IMG/VR virus record: IMGVR_UViG_3300025789_001553
Coordinates: 1 to 64,000 of that record
Length of the DNA stretch: 64,000 nt
DNA from: a virus
Reading direction: 5' to 3' (one strand)
Below the pieces are notes generated by a model, which saw only the letters and a program-made list of their open reading frames with translations, had not been told where the DNA came from and made no database searches. The translations under genes were made by a program, and so were the position numbers. Below are positions 19,575 through 25,236 of this stretch, piece by piece. Numbering within the stretch: the stretch's first letter is position 1; every line of letters starts with the position of its first letter.

Positions 19575-22139
19575 GTGTATCGTAACATTTATTACAGTCA
19601 ACGAGATAGTATGTGTCATCTCTTTACGTGGGATGAGAATGGTAAGCGTGTAATCAAAAAAACACCTTATCAGCCTTATTTTTATGTAGAGACAAATGCT
19701 GAAACAGCTGATGCTTTATCTATCTTTAATACTAAGTTAAAGAAAAAAGTATTTAAGAGTAACTTTGATCGTAATAAAGCTGCACAAGACGGCGCCATTA
19801 AACGTCTATATCACAATATTCAGGTAGAGCAACAATTTCTTATTGAGCAGTTTAAAGACGAATACGAAAAACCTGAGTTTTCTGCTAACCCATTAAAGGT
19901 TTGCTTTCTTGATATCGAAGTTTATTCACCGGATGAGTTCCCTGAAGCTAAGGATGCAAAGCATCCTATCAATCTGTTAACTATATATGATAACCTTTCT
20001 GAACACTTTTATACCTGGGGTTGTAAGCCTTATACTCCGACTCGTGATAACGTTATATACACTCAATGCACAAGTGAATATAACCTTTTAGAAAAGTTTT
20101 TAGAGTTCTGGGAAAGCGGTTATTACCCTGATATACTATCAGGGTGGAATACAGACTTTTTCGACTTCCCTTATTTAATTAACCGTATTAATAACTTATT
20201 AGGAGAAGACGCAGCTAAGAGGTTATCCCCAGTAAAAAGTCTTTGGTGTCGTAAAGGTATCTTTGTTAAAGGTCAAGAGTTAGATCGTTGGTATATTCAT
20301 GGTATATCTGCAATGGATTATCTCGAAGTGTACAGAGGTTTTGCTCGCGGTTTGTTAGAGTCGTATGCACTAAACTTTGTGGCACAACACGAATTAGGTG
20401 AAGGTAAATTAGCTATCAACGCTACCAACTTAGCTTCTCTATCTGAAAACGACTGGAATAACTTTGTAGATTATAATATTCAAGACGTTGACCTGTTAGT
20501 ACGAATGGAAAAGAAACTGCAATTCTTTAAGATTATTCGTATGTTAGCTTACAAAGGACTAACCTCGTTTGAAGCAGCTTTAGGTAAAGTTTCTATTGTT
20601 ACCGGGTGCGTTGCACTACAAGCATATAAACACGGTATGGTTATACCAACATTCGTTGAAGGACCTCTACGCGAGGAAATTCAGGGTGGTTTCGTAAGAG
20701 AACCAGAAAGAGGCCTACAAAAGTCTATAGTAAGTTATGACGCTAACTCACTATACCCTAATACCATTATTACCTTGAATATATCCCCGGAGACTAAGTT
20801 CGGTAAAATAGTTAGTAAGAGTGATACTGAAGTGGTTATTCGTTACGGTAATAACAAAGAGCAGCCACTATCGCATGAAAAGTTTATACAGTTTATGCAG
20901 GTTGAAAAACTTGCTCTATCTAAAGCAAATGTACTATACACGCAAAAGAAAAAAGGTGTGGTGCCTGCATTAATTGATGGGCTGTATAAAGAGCGTGTAA
21001 CCAATAAAAATCAGTACGTCGAATTTAAAAAGAAACTAAGTAAGTTAACTACAGATACAGATGAGTACAAAACGTGTAAGTTTAATATGGAACGAGCTGA
21101 CACCATTCAGCACGTTATCAAAATTCTTCTTAACTCCATTTACGGTGTTTTTGCTAATAAGTTTAGCCCTATTTGCGATAGTGATCACGCCGGTAGCATT
21201 ACTCTTACTGGTCAGTCAGTGGTTAAGCAAGCAAGTGATATCATTGATCAATACGCTAAGGAAAGGTTTGGCTACACTGGTAAATCGTTAACTATATATA
21301 ACGATACGGATAGTACTCACGTTACTATTCAACCTTTATTAGATCAAATGAAGTTAAACATATTAACTGAAAACAAGGTTAATAAAGAAGGTTTAAAGTT
21401 CATTGATGACGAATTAGGTGTATATCTTAACGAACATATTAAACAATGGGCTAAAGATAAACTCAACTCAATAGACCCACGCTATTTCTTCAAACGTGAA
21501 TCTATCTGTGATGTAGGAGTATACCTTGAAAAGAAACGCTACATTATACATGTATTAAATGACGAAGGTGCAGATGTTAGTAAGTTTAAATATGTTGGTG
21601 TTGAAATTGCACGTTCTACTACCCCTAAGAAAGCTAAAGAACTAATTAAAAAGGTTATTGAGAATAGCTTATTAGTACAAGATCAAAATAAAGCAAACAC
21701 TATTTATAGAGACGTTTATGATGGGTTTAAATCATTATCTATTGACGATGTAGCTATTAGAGGTGGTTTAAGTGATTTAGAAAAACATGAAGTACGTTCA
21801 GAAGGGTTTAAAATAGCTAAAGGTACACCTAATCATGTCAAAGGAGCTATTTGGTATAACATGCTATTAAAACATAGAGGGTTAGAAACAAAGTACGAAC
21901 GCATTACTTCAGGTGGTAAGGTAAAGAAGATTTATATTGCGCCTAACAGGTATAATATTGATACTCTTTGCTACCCTGTTAGTTTTCCACCAGAATTAAA
22001 CGATTTTCAAGTTGATTATGAAGAAATGTTCGATACAATTATAGTACCTCCAGTAAAAGCAGTTTATGAAGCTCTTAACTGGCAGTTACCACAAGTAAAC
22101 AATCAAGCACAAACAGACTTATTTGACCTATTCACATGA
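19575..22139 (+). CDS. family B DNA polymerase (T4 gp43-like)
   Basis: Exonuclease DIE, GWN..FFD, YNIQDV; polymerase YDANSLYP, KILLNSIYG, YNDTDS, KKRY. Confidence 0.96.
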   Translation: MYRNIYYSQRDSMCHLFTWDENGKRVIKKTPYQPYFYVETNAETADALSIFNTKLKKKVFKSNFDRNKAAQDGAIKRLYHNIQVEQQFLIEQFKDEYEKPEFSANPLKVCFLDIEVYSPDEFPEAKDAKHPINLLTIYDNLSEHFYTWGCKPYTPTRDNVIYTQCTSEYNLLEKFLEFWESGYYPDILSGWNTDFFDFPYLINRINNLLGEDAAKRLSPVKSLWCRKGIFVKGQELDRWYIHGISAMDYLEVYRGFARGLLESYALNFVAQHELGEGKLAINATNLASLSENDWNNFVDYNIQDVDLLVRMEKKLQFFKIIRMLAYKGLTSFEAALGKVSIVTGCVALQAYKHGMVIPTFVEGPLREEIQGGFVREPERGLQKSIVSYDANSLYPNTIITLNISPETKFGKIVSKSDTEVVIRYGNNKEQPLSHEKFIQFMQVEKLALSKANVLYTQKKKGVVPALIDGLYKERVTNKNQYVEFKKKLSKLTTDTDEYKTCKFNMERADTIQHVIKILLNSIYGVFANKFSPICDSDHAGSITLTGQSVVKQASDIIDQYAKERFGYTGKSLTIYNDTDSTHVTIQPLLDQMKLNILTENKVNKEGLKFIDDELGVYLNEHIKQWAKDKLNSIDPRYFFKRESICDVGVYLEKKRYIIHVLNDEGADVSKFKYVGVEIARSTTPKKAKELIKKVIENSLLVQDQNKANTIYRDVYDGFKSLSIDDVAIRGGLSDLEKHEVRSEGFKIAKGTPNHVKGAIWYNMLLKHRGLETKYERITSGGKVKKIYIAPNRYNIDTLCYPVSFPPELNDFQVDYEEMFDTIIVPPVKAVYEALNWQLPQVNNQAQTDLFDLFT

Positions 22140-22942
22140 TTAAAATATCTCACGAATCTCCTTTAAGTATGCTCGAGATCTCTCGTACATACAACGATTA
22201 CTGCTACGCTTTAGTGCACCTCTTCGAAACTCACCCAGAATATTACAAGTTCTTTGAAGATAGTGTTAAAATGGGTAGACATGTCTTATTAGATAATTCT
22301 ATCTTTGAATTAGGTGAATCTTTTAATCCTAAACGCTATGCTTATTGGATTCAAAGACTTAACCCTACAGAGTATATCATACCAGACGTATTGGAGGATT
22401 GTAATGGTACAATTGAGTCTGCTAAGAAATGCTTATGGAGAGAATGGGACTTTGTTAACGATTCTAAAACTATCGGCGTGGTACAAGGTAAAACTTATGC
22501 TGAATTAGTTAAATGTTATGTAACTTTAGATCAAGAAATTGATGTAGATAAGTTAGCTATTTCATTTGACTATTCTTATTATCTCAAACTATTTCCGCAC
22601 CCTAACAAATGGGTATCTTATATGATGGGTAGAGTAATGACTCTTAATCAATTAATGAATGATGGTATTATTAATAAAGATAAAACTCATCATTTATTAG
22701 GCTGTGCACACCCAAGAGAATTTAGTTTTTATCAAGGACCTGAATATAATTGGATTGAAACATTAGATACATCATCTCCTATTGTTCACGGTATTAAAAG
22801 AGTAAGATACTCTAATGCTATTGGTAACTGGAAAAAGGAGTCTACTAAGCTTGTAGATCTTTTAGATGTAATACCGGATGCAATGCAAGAAAAAATCATT
22901 GCAAATAATTTAATTGAGTTTAGAAACTACGTTAATGGATGA
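22136..22942 (+). CDS. dpdA: TGT-fold deazaguanine transglycosylase-like protein (DpdA-like, possibly DpdA3)
   Basis: LLDNSIFELG, IIPDV, GVVQG, HHLLG, LDTSS resemble TGT/DpdA barrel motifs; coupled to pol and clustered with queF. Confidence 0.65.
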   Translation: MIKISHESPLSMLEISRTYNDYCYALVHLFETHPEYYKFFEDSVKMGRHVLLDNSIFELGESFNPKRYAYWIQRLNPTEYIIPDVLEDCNGTIESAKKCLWREWDFVNDSKTIGVVQGKTYAELVKCYVTLDQEIDVDKLAISFDYSYYLKLFPHPNKWVSYMMGRVMTLNQLMNDGIINKDKTHHLLGCAHPREFSFYQGPEYNWIETLDTSSPIVHGIKRVRYSNAIGNWKKESTKLVDLLDVIPDAMQEKIIANNLIEFRNYVNG

Positions 22943-24326: not shown

Positions 24327-25236
24327 TACTAATAATATTGACAAAGTACTTGGTCAGAGAGTTGATTCTCCTACCACCTACACGCCTGAGATTTTAGTGC
24401 GTGAAGAACGCCAACGTAATCGTACCTATTTAGGTTTACAGAACGATTCTTTACCATTCGTAGGTTACGATATTTGGAACGGTTATGAATGTAGTGCATT
24501 AACAGATAATGGTTTACCAGTTACATGCGTAGCTAAGGTAATTTATTCTGCTACTAATGATTTCATTGTTGAATCTAAATCAATGAAGCTTTACTGGAAC
24601 TCATTTAACATGCAAAAGATGGGTAAGAATACTAAAGAAGTACTTAAGAACATTAAGCAAACAGCTTCTAAGGACTTATCTCTATTATTAGAAACTGATG
24701 TTAAAGTAGAGCTATTTCCACAAATTATAGATATTACTACTGAAGAAGCGCGTAATGTTTGGCTCGGAGATTATAATCCGCAGTCATGGTTAGCTCTCGA
24801 AAAGATTAAAAGTGCTGAAAAGGTTAAATTTACAGTGTTTAACGAGAATGCTGATCTTTTAGTTGCAAACGACGCTGAAGTGTCTAAACCTCATTTCTAT
24901 ATGAGTACTTTATTACGTTCTAACTGTAAGATTACTAAGCAGCCAGATTCTGGTGATATCTTTATTTATTATAAAGGTGATAAAGAAGTAACAGAACAAT
25001 CCTTATTAGAGTGGATCGTATCATTCCGTAATGAATGTCATTTCCATGAAGAAATATGTGAAGCTGCTTATAAACGTTTATGGGACTTGTTACAACCAGA
25101 AGAGCTTATGGTGACTTGTTTCTATGCTCGTCGTGGTGGTTGGGATATTGTTCCTACTCGCGCATCAAATAAAAAATTACTTGATCAAAATCTTATCAAC
25201 ATAAAGTTCCCGTACTTTAAATTTCCTCGTCAATAA
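24316..25236 (+). CDS. queF: NADPH-dependent preQ0 reductase QueF (two-domain type)
   Basis: QueF motif VESKSMKLYWNSF, catalytic LRSNCKITKQPD, FHEEICE, YARRGG. Confidence 0.92.
   Translation: MSYNTNNIDKVLGQRVDSPTTYTPEILVREERQRNRTYLGLQNDSLPFVGYDIWNGYECSALTDNGLPVTCVAKVIYSATNDFIVESKSMKLYWNSFNMQKMGKNTKEVLKNIKQTASKDLSLLLETDVKVELFPQIIDITTEEARNVWLGDYNPQSWLALEKIKSAEKVKFTVFNENADLLVANDAEVSKPHFYMSTLLRSNCKITKQPDSGDIFIYYKGDKEVTEQSLLEWIVSFRNECHFHEEICEAAYKRLWDLLQPEELMVTCFYARRGGWDIVPTRASNKKLLDQNLINIKFPYFKFPRQ

Follow-up and report, generated by a model that had tools for sequence, protein, structure and literature searches.

A P-loop kinase accompanies the DpdA3-type transglycosylase in a predicted guanine-replacement cassette of an uncultured phage

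Introduction

Among the closest described systems is that of Flavobacterium phage immuto, whose DNA contains 345,000 fdPreQ1 per million nucleotides with the dG peak gone (i.e., G is fully replaced), and whose gp204 product was named DpdN (Cui 2023). In CP220-type phages, dADG replaces 100% of G (as cited in Cui 2023). The bacterial Dpd module DpdA/DpdB/DpdC also employs a TGT-fold transglycosylase with a 7-deazaguanine base; its DpdA (bDpdA) keeps the TGT zinc site, requires the ParB-like ATPase DpdB for action on DNA, and modifies few sites, in finished DNA (PMC10164549), at a rate below 0.1% of G (Cui 2023). A different base is handled by the DutZ/DUF5664 and DmtZ route to dZMP in the PurZ0 phages Ghobes and Wayne, in which a dNTP pyrophosphohydrolase provides the dNMP, the base is swapped on deoxyribose-5-phosphate, and the product is phosphorylated and used by the phage polymerase (Poubanne 2026, PMC12884076).

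Here, we describe a related cassette from an uncultured phage represented by an IMG/VR record of 82 kb (IMGVR_UViG_3300025789_001553), which is rated 39% complete. The window analysed comprises positions 1 to 64,000 of this record.

Results

Six ORFs, all on the + strand and verified for coordinates and junctions, make up the cassette between positions 19575 and 25236, as the first-pass annotation had listed them: a family-B DNA polymerase (PolB), a DpdA3-type transglycosylase, a 76-aa ORF, a DpdN-type formyltransferase, a kinase of NadR/dNK/TMPK fold, and a bimodular QueF. Three of the junctions are 4-nt ATGA overlaps, one is a 3-nt gap, and one an 11-nt overlap. The DpdA3, DpdN, kinase, and QueF proteins are 49, 43, 33, and 42% identical to immuto gp206 (annotated as 'DNA guanine transglycosylase, DpdA'), gp204, gp203, and gp202, respectively. 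Since the block order DpdA3-DpdN-kinase-QueF, with a small ORF after DpdA3, is that of immuto, the cassette belongs to a known system and, judging from homology and gene order, is predicted to swap every guanine of the phage DNA for a formylated 7-deazaguanine, in agreement with the initial call of a deazaguanine DNA-modification module. A few differences from immuto were also observed: immuto carries PolA three genes after QueF, whereas in the window a family-B polymerase overlaps DpdA3; the small ORF of immuto (50 aa) is unrelated to the 76-aa ORF; and the MazG-like and phosphoribosyltransferase genes that immuto carries close to its DpdA3 were not found in the window.

The window encodes the full preQ1 pathway, as does immuto, and all five enzymes named in the first-pass annotation could be placed. 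FolE, GTP cyclohydrolase I, which catalyses the first step to preQ0, is encoded at 32606..33331 (+; Pfam GTP_cyclohydroI, 1.5e-47), and three further genes lie on the - strand: a QueD-like 6-carboxytetrahydropterin synthase (5253..5717; PTPS 6.4e-18, TIGR03367 2.5e-8, the latter below cut-off), a QueE-like radical-SAM enzyme (4428..5231; Fer4_12 1.9e-4, and five QueE NCBIfam models at 2e-10 to 4e-6, all below cut-offs), and the N-terminal part of QueC (7..264; PF06508 2.9e-22, profile positions 1-82 of 210), whose gene is cut by the contig start. The bimodular QueF of the cassette (24316..25236, +), the preQ0-to-preQ1 reductase, matches QueF_N at 1.1e-27 and QueF at 6.8e-19 in Pfam and scores 221.6 bits against TIGR03138, below the cut-off of 293.45; it carries Cys204 (in SNCKITKQPD) and ESKSMKLYW, which we take to be the QueF motifs, consistent with a true QueF with its catalytic Cys.

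The DpdA3-type protein (22136..22942, +; 268 aa) has no Pfam match, matches phrog_19058 at 1e-50 in PHROGs, and is 42-43% identical to the CP220-type protein. Its AF2 model (pLDDT 89.8) has a TGT fold: TGT is the top Foldseek match (6e-8), and VIA-align superposes the model on Z. mobilis TGT with a Z of 17.5 and an rmsd of 3.2 A over 230 residues. The sequence and structure comparisons bear out the TGT-like, DpdA-like identity suggested at first reading. The Cys residues, solely at 23, 89, 99, 127, and 190, form no cluster of the kind that builds the TGT zinc site. The model depicts a minimal, cut-down TIM barrel. DpdA3 differs from bDpdA in lacking the Cys cluster, in its pairing with a protein of nucleoside/NMP-kinase fold, and in going with full replacement.

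The DpdN-type (PurN-like) formyltransferase (23166..23744, +) matches Formyl_trans_N at 1e-7 (32.3 bits vs. a cut-off of 26.1) and TIGR00639 PurN at 4e-9, far below that model's cut-off. It carries N99-x-H101 and D144, presumably the formyltransferase motif. The link between a PurN paralog (DpdN) and the formyl-preQ1 DNA of a Flavobacterium phage, named in the first-pass annotation, agrees with Cui 2023.

The adjacency of PolB and the presence of the 76-aa ORF are confined to one clade. PolB (19575..22139, +; DNA_pol_B 6.9e-23 and DNA_pol_B_exo1 1e-16 in Pfam, motif B KILLNSIYG, motif C YNDTDS), which shares 4 nt with the start of DpdA3, adjoins it in 32 of the 67 loci whose upstream sequence is long enough, these 32 all showing 65% DpdA3 identity or above, and its adjacency is therefore clade-specific rather than general. 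Similarly, the 76-aa ORF (22939..23169, +), which has no family match in Pfam, PHROGs or NCBIfam and gave sub-threshold leads in Atlas, recurs with unchanged position and length in 32/71 loci that reach far enough, again all with at least 65% DpdA3 identity; it is an accessory gene of this clade and not, as had been supposed, a core part of the route.

The kinase gene (23748..24326, +) encodes a P-loop protein that matches AAA_28 in Pfam (3.6e-10), phrog_2107 in PHROGs (4e-21), and NadR (4.6e-6 and 8.9e-6), dNK (6.9e-5), and TMPK (0.015) in a PDB profile search. Among the Foldseek matches listed for its model (ranks 1-50; pLDDT 87.8), a single one, to a respiratory supercomplex chain, falls outside NadR ribosylnicotinamide kinase, the deoxynucleoside kinases, and TMPK. 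From these fold matches and the profile search, the protein looks like a small-molecule nucleoside/NMP kinase of the NadR-RNK/dNK/TMPK fold.

To sample DpdA3 neighbourhoods, we used the best 80 of 555 confirmed IMG/VR matches, each at least 49% identical to the window protein and many of them near-duplicates; 65 of the 80 loci extend for 900 nt or more beyond DpdA3 on its downstream side and are informative in this respect. In 65/65 of these loci, a kinase homolog occurs no more than 1300 nt downstream of DpdA3; the loci form nine clusters at 70% DpdA3 identity, with the kinase in all nine. The same neighbourhood is found in immuto, in CP220 and its relatives (Firehammervirus), where a kinase family member (33% identical) directly follows DpdA3, and in CC_R7, where a DpdA3-like gene stands between QueC and an AAA_28 kinase, with a DNA polymerase next in the row. 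The kinase is kept where DpdN is missing (L070, L080, L081, CP220) and where QueF is missing (CP220); in fact, CP220 differs from the window in having no homolog of its DpdN or QueF within 10 kb of DpdA3, as well as in the inserted base (ADG) and in a protein, encoded upstream of DpdA3, in which HD and AAA_33 domains are fused. On one MAG contig where the adjacency to DpdA3 is lost, the kinase is still present and lies some 585 nt upstream of PolA. The immediate neighbour of DpdA3 in phiST is a small P-loop gene (AAA_18, 9.4e-7) with no detectable match to the kinase family of the window (0.2% by hhalign to alignment A2), and a MazG gene lies two genes away. Hence the co-occurrence check proposed at the outset came out positive for the kinase, which is a conserved partner of DpdA3.

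A search of 50,697 phage records gave kinase matches at E <=6e-17 in 18 records (14 Campylobacter, 4 Flavobacterium), precisely those in which DpdA3 occurs as well. The family is not exclusive to DpdA3, since 32 of the 50 phage records with a match are Streptomyces phages, and in the one locus inspected no DpdA3 adjoins the kinase. The window itself holds a second, paralogous kinase near QueE and QueD (3235..3945, -; AAA_28 1.8e-10; 99.2% and E 3e-19 by hhalign against A2). A second copy was found in one of five related records, and in none of the three near-complete ones among these, and is clade-specific.

These data bear on two other roles for the kinase. The first is that of a NadR-type ribosylnicotinamide kinase for NAD salvage, present in the cassette by chance, as might be argued from the NadR proteins at the top of the PDB sequence matches, the membership in AAA_28, and the annotation as NadR in one CP21 record. 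We consider this very improbable given the constant position downstream of DpdA3 in the informative loci (among the best 80 of 555) and the direct adjacency in CP220-type phages and CC_R7; furthermore, no NMN adenylyltransferase domain is fused to the kinase, and its PHROGs match to that family is weak (0.0032 over 25 residues). The second role, which we judge improbable, if somewhat less so, is that of an NTPase helper of DpdA3 on DNA, i.e., a DpdB-like part acting, for instance, in DNA opening or processive exchange. The strict conservation of the gene pair and the ATPase partner needed by bDpdA for DNA insertion (PMC10164549) are consistent with it, but DpdB is a ParB-fold NTPase and not a P-loop kinase (PMC10164549), all but one of the Foldseek matches listed (ranks 1-50) are small-molecule kinases, and searches of Pfam, PHROGs and NCBIfam gave no DNA-binding domain.

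The dGTP hydrolase noted at 14676 stands in part. [quoted passage not shown] It sits, however, within a glycosyltransferase island and has no homolog in the five related phage records searched (0/5), so that dGTP depletion through it is not a conserved feature. PF04447, the paired family, was not found in the record, which shows little because the same search rang in 0/14 control genomes; PF01503 and PF12643 were likewise absent from the record, which is 39% complete. MazG/PRA-PH genes occur in 3/5 records, inside the cassette in one alone. No dGTP-removing enzyme is conserved.

Discussion

We favor, with a probability of about 0.5, a pre-replicative route at the nucleoside or nucleotide level over the published post-replicative model. 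Specifically, the DpdA3-type transglycosylase would put the 7-deazaguanine base on deoxyribose, with guanine leaving, and would do so on free dG or dGMP, at the deoxynucleoside or deoxynucleotide stage, rather than on finished DNA; the DpdN-type PurN paralog would formylate the aminomethyl group, the kinase would phosphorylate the exchange product towards the triphosphate, and the phage polymerase would incorporate it. Canonical dGTP may be lowered by the dNTP hydrolase of each lineage, i.e., DUF5664 in the window, MazG-like in the immuto clade and phiST, and HD in CP220. The route could operate at the nucleoside or dNMP level alike, with formylation at any stage. In its favor are the constant pairing of the kinase with DpdA3, the resemblance of the kinase to small-molecule kinases, and the cut-down barrel of DpdA3. 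The complete base replacements known from other phages (T4 hmC, S-2L Z) take place before replication. In the T4 pathway (dCTPase, dCMP hydroxymethylase, and the gp1 dNMP kinase), the canonical dNTP is removed, a modified dNMP is made, a phage kinase phosphorylates it, and the phage polymerase incorporates it; the proposed route would share this logic, but the T4 enzymes are unrelated and modify the pyrimidine ring with no base exchange.

A base swap at the dNMP level has a precedent in the DutZ/DmtZ system, which also resembles the window in its DUF5664 gene and differs in that DmtZ has an NDT fold, not a TGT fold, and the base is 2-aminoadenine (Poubanne 2026); the comparison is one of analogous mechanism and not of membership. 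The use of a modified dGTP by the polymerase, put forward at first reading, is not a new idea, having been proposed already for Campylobacter phages (cited in Hutinet 2019).

Several observations count against the pre-replicative route. DpdA3 occurs fused to QueF, to a NUMOD3 motif, or to an unknown N-terminal region, and never to a kinase. The closest relative of the kinase with a solved structure is NadR, which acts in NAD salvage. The lack of a conserved dGTP-removing enzyme, the dATP preference of the characterised DUF5664 enzyme, and the occurrence of the kinase family away from DpdA3 weigh in the same direction. To our knowledge, the characterised TGT/DpdA enzymes all act on tRNA or DNA. 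Further, all deazaguanine DNA modifications are post-replicative according to Cui 2023. Under the published model, DpdA3 would swap G for preQ1 in replicated DNA, very efficiently, DpdN would formylate dPreQ1 in DNA or free preQ1, and the kinase would serve supply alone: per inserted base one GTP is spent at FolE and one guanine freed, and the kinase, together with a phosphoribosyltransferase (immuto, phiST), might recycle guanine to GTP or raise dNTP levels. Such insertion was proposed for all DpdA families (Cui 2023), and it is consistent with the action of bDpdA on DNA (PMC10164549), the TGT fold of DpdA3, the phosphoribosyltransferase genes in immuto, eight IMG/VR loci, one MAG locus (L090) and phiST, the lack of a conserved dGTPase, and the DpdA3-QueF fusions, which show only that DpdA3 receives the free base. 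On the other hand, the kinase adjoins DpdA3, not FolE or the phosphoribosyltransferase, and is kept in loci without a nearby phosphoribosyltransferase. Hosts already possess guanylate kinase, and in E. coli DpdA3 yielded no DNA modification. Other DpdA families replace 0.1-30% of G vs. 100% for DpdA3 (Cui 2023). We therefore see post-replicative exchange as a possible but less probable account than the pre-replicative route.

Finally, it is important to note that gene neighbourhood points to a shared pathway, not to an order of events. What is not in print is the kinase as companion of DpdA3, the rest of the cassette being an already known system; in the main text of Cui 2023, the word 'kinase' occurs 0 times. 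With DpdA3-type insertion and DpdN-type formylation, the virion DNA of this phage should carry fdPreQ1 for most or all G, as measured in immuto, and the kinase that constantly accompanies DpdA3 suggests that the modified base may enter nucleotides before replication.

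Gene content and kinship of the cassette

The first-pass annotation had described six tightly coupled genes, and all six open reading frames were found on the plus strand: a family-B DNA polymerase (PolB, 19575-22139), a TGT-fold protein of 268 aa (DpdA3, 22136-22942), a 76-aa ORF (22939-23169), a PurN-like formyltransferase (DpdN, 23166-23744), a P-loop gene (23748-24326; hereafter, the kinase) and QueF (24316-25236). The coupling is as tight as proposed: the PolB/DpdA3, DpdA3/76-aa ORF and 76-aa ORF/DpdN junctions are ATGA overlaps, 3 nt separate DpdN from the kinase, and the kinase and QueF overlap by 11 nt. 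Pfam profiles matched PolB, DpdN (Formyl_trans_N; 32.3 bits vs. a cut-off of 26.1), the P-loop protein (AAA_28) and both domains of a bimodular QueF (QueF_N and QueF, each above its cut-off). The latter protein carries C204 and ESKSMKLYW, which correspond to the catalytic Cys and the QueF motif, respectively; the NCBIfam equivalog TIGR03138 scored 221.6 bits on it, under the cut-off of 293.45. Motif C of the polymerase reads YNDTDS (window 21303-21320, residues 577-582), the usual form being YGDTDS.

The other preQ1 pathway genes lie elsewhere in the window, namely FolE (32606-33331), QueD (5253-5717, minus strand), a QueE-like radical-SAM gene (4428-5231, minus strand) and QueC (7-264; the first 82 profile positions only, the gene being cut by the contig end). 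The source record has 82,476 bases in IMG/VR, of which the window represents bases 1-64000, and is rated 39% complete. That is, DpdA3 is co-encoded with 7-deazaguanine synthesis genes, and DpdN with a DpdA and the FolE-to-QueF pathway.

DpdN shares 43% identity with gp204 of the Flavobacterium phage immuto, and the immuto gene order (DpdA, a 50-aa ORF, a PurN-like gene, a "thymidylate kinase" and QueF) is the same as that of the window; since the genes are homologous and identically ordered, the window cassette belongs to that known system. The names DpdA3 (transglycosylase family) and DpdN (formyltransferase YP_010114479) come from Cui 2023 (PMC10516641), which reports 345,000 fdPreQ1 (formylated preQ1 deoxynucleoside) per million nucleotides in immuto DNA, with the dG peak gone, and full replacement of G in immuto, CP220 and phiST. 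We predict fdPreQ1 in place of G in the DNA of the window phage as well. CP220-type phages differ in that DpdA3 is followed directly by a kinase, of the same family as that of the window, and homologs of the DpdN and QueF of the window were not detected within 10 kb of DpdA3. Immuto also carries a short gene for a phosphoribosyltransferase and one for a MazG-like (PRA-PH) protein (L001:9843-10238 and 11282-11806); this pair adjoins FolE and DpdA3 across the immuto clade (immuto and 8 IMG/VR loci), and in one environmental locus (L074) a MazG-like gene sits between the kinase and QueF.

A kinase as the constant partner of DpdA3

To assess which genes accompany DpdA3, the window genes were sought by tblastn in the best 80 of 555 viral DpdA3 loci. 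The kinase was found within 1300 nt downstream of DpdA3 in 65/65 loci with at least 900 nt of downstream sequence, and in all 59 with at least 1500 nt; DpdN was present in 56 of the latter 59 (missing in L070, L080 and L081), and QueF in 56/56 loci with at least 2600 nt. Clustering of these loci, drawn from the best 80 of 555, at 70% DpdA3 identity gave 9 groups, each with the kinase. Such counts overstate independence because the sample consists of the nearest relatives (49-94% identity), many of them near-duplicates. Hence, of the two genes for which co-occurrence with dpdA3/dpdN had been suggested, the kinase bears this out, whereas the 76-aa ORF, a real conserved gene, is restricted to loci with a DpdA3 identity of at least 65% (32/71), has no detectable relatives outside those loci, and is not a core part. 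Likewise, the suggested coupling to the polymerase applies to the window, where PolB adjoins DpdA3, but this adjacency is limited to the same clade as the 76-aa ORF (32/67 loci).

The three loci without DpdN show further variation. In L070 (6123-7079) a GNAT-like domain extends the kinase at its C-terminus (AAA_28 7e-22; Acetyltransf_10 0.0023, weak); this fusion ties an acyl-transfer step to the kinase and could mean an N-acetylated preQ1 variant. L080 and L081 (8001-10898) encode, in order, DpdA3, the kinase, QueF and QueC, with a dUTPase-family gene two genes upstream of DpdA3, and plain dPreQ1 DNA is predicted there since DpdN is missing.

Among cultured phages, kinase matches at E <=6e-17 are exactly the 18 DpdA3-holding records, and a weaker kinase-family group comprises 32 Streptomyces phage records. 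In the one Streptomyces phage locus examined (Yaboi, L084:4611-6612), no DpdA3 lies beside the kinase homolog; the latter scored 1.8e-29 in a local hmmsearch and overlaps a gene for an FkbM-type methyltransferase, which was considered and rejected as a hidden DpdA3 (hhalign 0.07%), and SLOG/YpsA-like and MazG genes are near. The Streptomyces phage kinase locus may be another nucleotide-level modification module.

More distant DpdA3 loci were also compared. The Campylobacter phage CC_R7 (L086:3351-8453) encodes, in order, QueC, a DpdA3-like gene, an AAA_28 kinase and a DNA polymerase; its DpdA3-like gene is divergent (27% to CP220), and several transposase genes adjoin the locus. In phiST, a small P-loop protein (CGPG_00066, L087:26382-26861, minus strand; AAA_18, 9.4e-7) directly adjoins DpdA3, with MazG encoded two genes upstream. 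CGPG_00066 showed no detectable match to our kinase alignment (hhalign 0.2%) and was rejected as a member of that family; it is listed in Cui 2023 (PMC10516641) as unknown and as lacking a homolog in other deazaguanine phages. The phiST genome also has a phosphoribosyltransferase gene and a weak DNMK-like gene (L087:7603-8647). The Bacillus phage gene BSTP12_039 matched the kinase family only weakly (hhalign 40%, local hmmsearch E 0.0023) and was left out of the counts. BSTP12_038 (annotated as NadR; L085:4336-7692) is DpdA3-like by hhalign (98.5%); it overlaps PolA, and Gat-QueC, QueD and FolE lie upstream. Deazaguanine DNA may occur in the 55-kb BSTP12-type Bacillus phages and in Weizmannia phage Youna2.

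Across 185,579 bacterial and archaeal species genomes, DpdA3 was found at 4 loci only, all on MAG contigs, with the kinase nearby in 3 and 35 kb off in 1. On this last, 93-kb contig (L089:2359-6816, L094:5702-9210), DpdA3 lies without its usual neighbors close to a gene for a Vut_1/YhhQ-type transporter, and the kinase precedes a PolA gene by ~585 nt; FolE, QueD, QueE and QueF of the window had no match detected within 6 kb. The Vut_1/YhhQ family comprises queuosine-precursor transporters, and the phage in question may import or borrow the deazaguanine base.

What is new here, from locus comparison, is a nucleoside/NMP-kinase-fold gene as the constant partner of DpdA3. We found no publication on a DpdA3-linked kinase or on DpdA3 acting at the nucleotide level, and the word "kinase" occurs 0 times in the main texts of Cui 2023 and Hutinet 2019; Supplementary Data S1 of the former may list the kinase.

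Fold and family of DpdA3 and the kinase

The 268-aa protein has no match in Pfam or NCBIfam but matches phrog_19058 (1e-50), and structure comparison upheld the TGT-fold call made from the window alone: the AF2 model (pLDDT 89.8) matched TGT in Foldseek at 6e-8, and VIA-align against residues 39-360 of Z. mobilis TGT gave Z 17.5 and an rmsd of 3.2 A over 230 residues. A PDB sequence search with the DpdA3 profile returned no match. By tblastn, 19 of 50,697 phage records were matched, namely 4 immuto-type Flavobacterium phages (49% identity; annotated as DNA guanine transglycosylase DpdA), 14 CP220-type Campylobacter phages (42-43%) and 1 Weizmannia phage, and the phiST protein named DpdA3 (CGPG_00065) aligned to our DpdA3 alignment with an hhalign probability of 97.8% (E 1e-12). 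The family is large, with 3842 relatives at E <=0.001 in the protein search and 555 confirmed matches in the viral contig scan. All 21 aligned DpdA3 sequences share D53, D84, D145 and D211, which may correspond to the TGT catalytic aspartates. The TGT zinc site (a Cys cluster plus His) was not found in the window's DpdA3, which has no CxCxxC and Cys only at positions 23, 89, 99, 127 and 190; this site is conserved in the bacterial DpdA, bDpdA (PMC10164549). Longer DpdA3 forms are fusions with QueF, a NUMOD3 motif or an uncharacterized N-terminal region, and no kinase fusion was found among them; the natural DpdA3-QueF fusions from metagenomes include P0128 (531 aa) and P0130 (568 aa).

For the kinase, G11, S14, G16 and K17 (Walker A), D82 and R83 (DR), and D135, R138 and S139 (DDG-x-RS lid) are invariant in 21 sequences. 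The PDB profile search matched NadR ribosylnicotinamide kinase domains (4.6e-6 and 8.9e-6), a deoxynucleoside kinase (6.9e-5), TMPK (0.015) and deoxyguanosine kinase (0.03). With the AF2 model (pLDDT 87.8), Foldseek ranks 1-50 were all NadR, deoxyadenosine/deoxycytidine kinases, dNK or TMPK except one, a respiratory supercomplex chain. These profile and structure matches place the protein, by fold, among the small-molecule nucleoside and NMP kinases. The label "thymidylate kinase" stems from phrog_2107 and record annotation and is not borne out, there being no NCBIfam match and the PDB match to TMPK being weaker than those to NadR and dNK. An unrelated NAD-salvage kinase, which the NadR matches might bring to mind, is in our judgment very improbable for a gene found so constantly beside DpdA3, and a role as a DpdB-like helper of DpdA3, which the constant pairing would fit but the small-molecule kinase fold would not, also appears improbable, if somewhat less so. 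A second paralog of the kinase occurs in the window (3235-3945; hhalign 99.2%), three near-complete relatives have one copy only, and no longer kinase forms were found in the search.

Pre-replicative versus post-replicative insertion

Complete replacement of G is seen only with DpdA3, and DpdA3 constantly has a kinase-type neighbor, whatever the inserted base (fdPreQ1, preQ1 as predicted for L080/L081, dADG or dDG); the simplest reading of the two together is that the kinase acts on what DpdA3 produces. The guanine exchange by DpdA3 would then take place at the level of the free deoxynucleoside or deoxynucleotide, and the kinase would phosphorylate the product to a modified precursor, which the phage polymerase would incorporate. 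We assign such a pre-replicative route, with the modified base built into nucleotides before polymerization, a probability of about 0.5. The fuller proposal is more tentative, and we give it slightly less than even odds: DpdA3 would not be a DNA transglycosylase but the first TGT-fold enzyme to exchange guanine for a 7-deazaguanine at this free-nucleoside or free-nucleotide level, the kinase would then make the polymerase precursor, and the complete replacement of G in immuto-, CP220- and phiST-type phages, and in the widespread environmental clade of the window, would be pre-replicative, in conflict with the published model.

Several lines of evidence fit the pre-replicative reading. DpdA3 is a cut-down 268-aa barrel without the Cys cluster of the zinc site, unlike bDpdA, and in the trials described in Cui 2023 (PMC10516641) its expression in E. 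coli gave no DNA modification, the authors suggesting that further enzymes are possibly required. The same paper cites the presence of the nucleoside of ADG, the deazaguanine base of CP220-type phages, in CP220-infected cells (Crippen 2019), and the proposal of a modified dGTP in these phages is older (Hutinet 2019). In another phage system, exchange of the base on a dNMP has been demonstrated (Poubanne 2026, PMC12884076), and the window gene at 14676-14990 (plus strand) belongs to the same DUF5664 family as one of the dNTP pyrophosphohydrolases that work with the base-swap enzyme there. DNA polymerase genes of different families lie near the DpdA3/kinase pair in the window clade, CC_R7, BSTP12, the immuto clade and the MAG contig, a proximity that could also be ordinary clustering of replication genes.

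Other observations count against pre-replicative insertion. The fusion partners of DpdA3 are QueF, NUMOD3 or an N-terminal region, never a kinase, and, to our knowledge, the characterized TGT and DpdA enzymes act on polynucleotides. bDpdA acts on DNA (PMC10164549). Further, no dGTP-removing enzyme is conserved. The gene at 14676 had been proposed as a dGTP diphosphohydrolase, and its family membership stands (stand-alone PF18909/DUF5664, 89.8 bits vs. a cut-off of 27; Atlas clusters 0.97), but no homolog was found in 5/5 related records (two close relatives). A PDB sequence search with the DUF5664 protein returned no match. We dropped the view that it is merely a non-catalytic N-terminal domain, on the basis of Poubanne 2026 (PMC12884076), where a stand-alone DUF5664 protein is one of the dNTP pyrophosphohydrolases of the dNMP base-swap system and prefers dATP tenfold over dGTP. 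PF04447, PF01503 and PF12643 were not found in the window's own record (39% complete); blanks with PF04447 and PF18909 weigh little because neither matched any control genome. For MazG-type genes, a place in or next to the cassette is confined to the immuto clade (8 loci, immuto among them, and record G005) and phiST; in CP220, a protein combining HD and AAA_33 domains is encoded upstream of DpdA3. A run of five glycosyltransferase genes (12298-19542; phrog glycosyltransferase, GT11, GT10, GT2/7C and GT1_4) just upstream of PolB encloses the DUF5664 gene and also an SMC-like gene.

Alternatively, insertion may be post-replicative, i.e., by exchange in finished DNA, with the kinase in a supply role only. 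A supply kinase would fit the published post-replicative model; it could recycle freed guanine to GTP, together with the phosphoribosyltransferase of immuto and phiST. We regard this alternative as less likely, and favor, with the reservations noted, pre-replicative insertion.

Implications

A modified dGTP was proposed in 2019, and the post-replicative model followed in 2023 after the TGT-like gene DpdA3 had emerged; DpdA3 is so far without demonstrated activity. Its constant kinase partner raises anew whether insertion precedes or follows replication. If the nucleotide-level route is true, it would widen the known chemistry of the TGT superfamily, explain the failure of DpdA3 in the E. coli DNA-modification trials, and provide an enzymatic path to 7-deazaguanine dNTPs. 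Given the size of the DpdA3 family, with its 3842 relatives, many environmental phages likely have fully modified DNA, which would be restriction-resistant and difficult to sequence.
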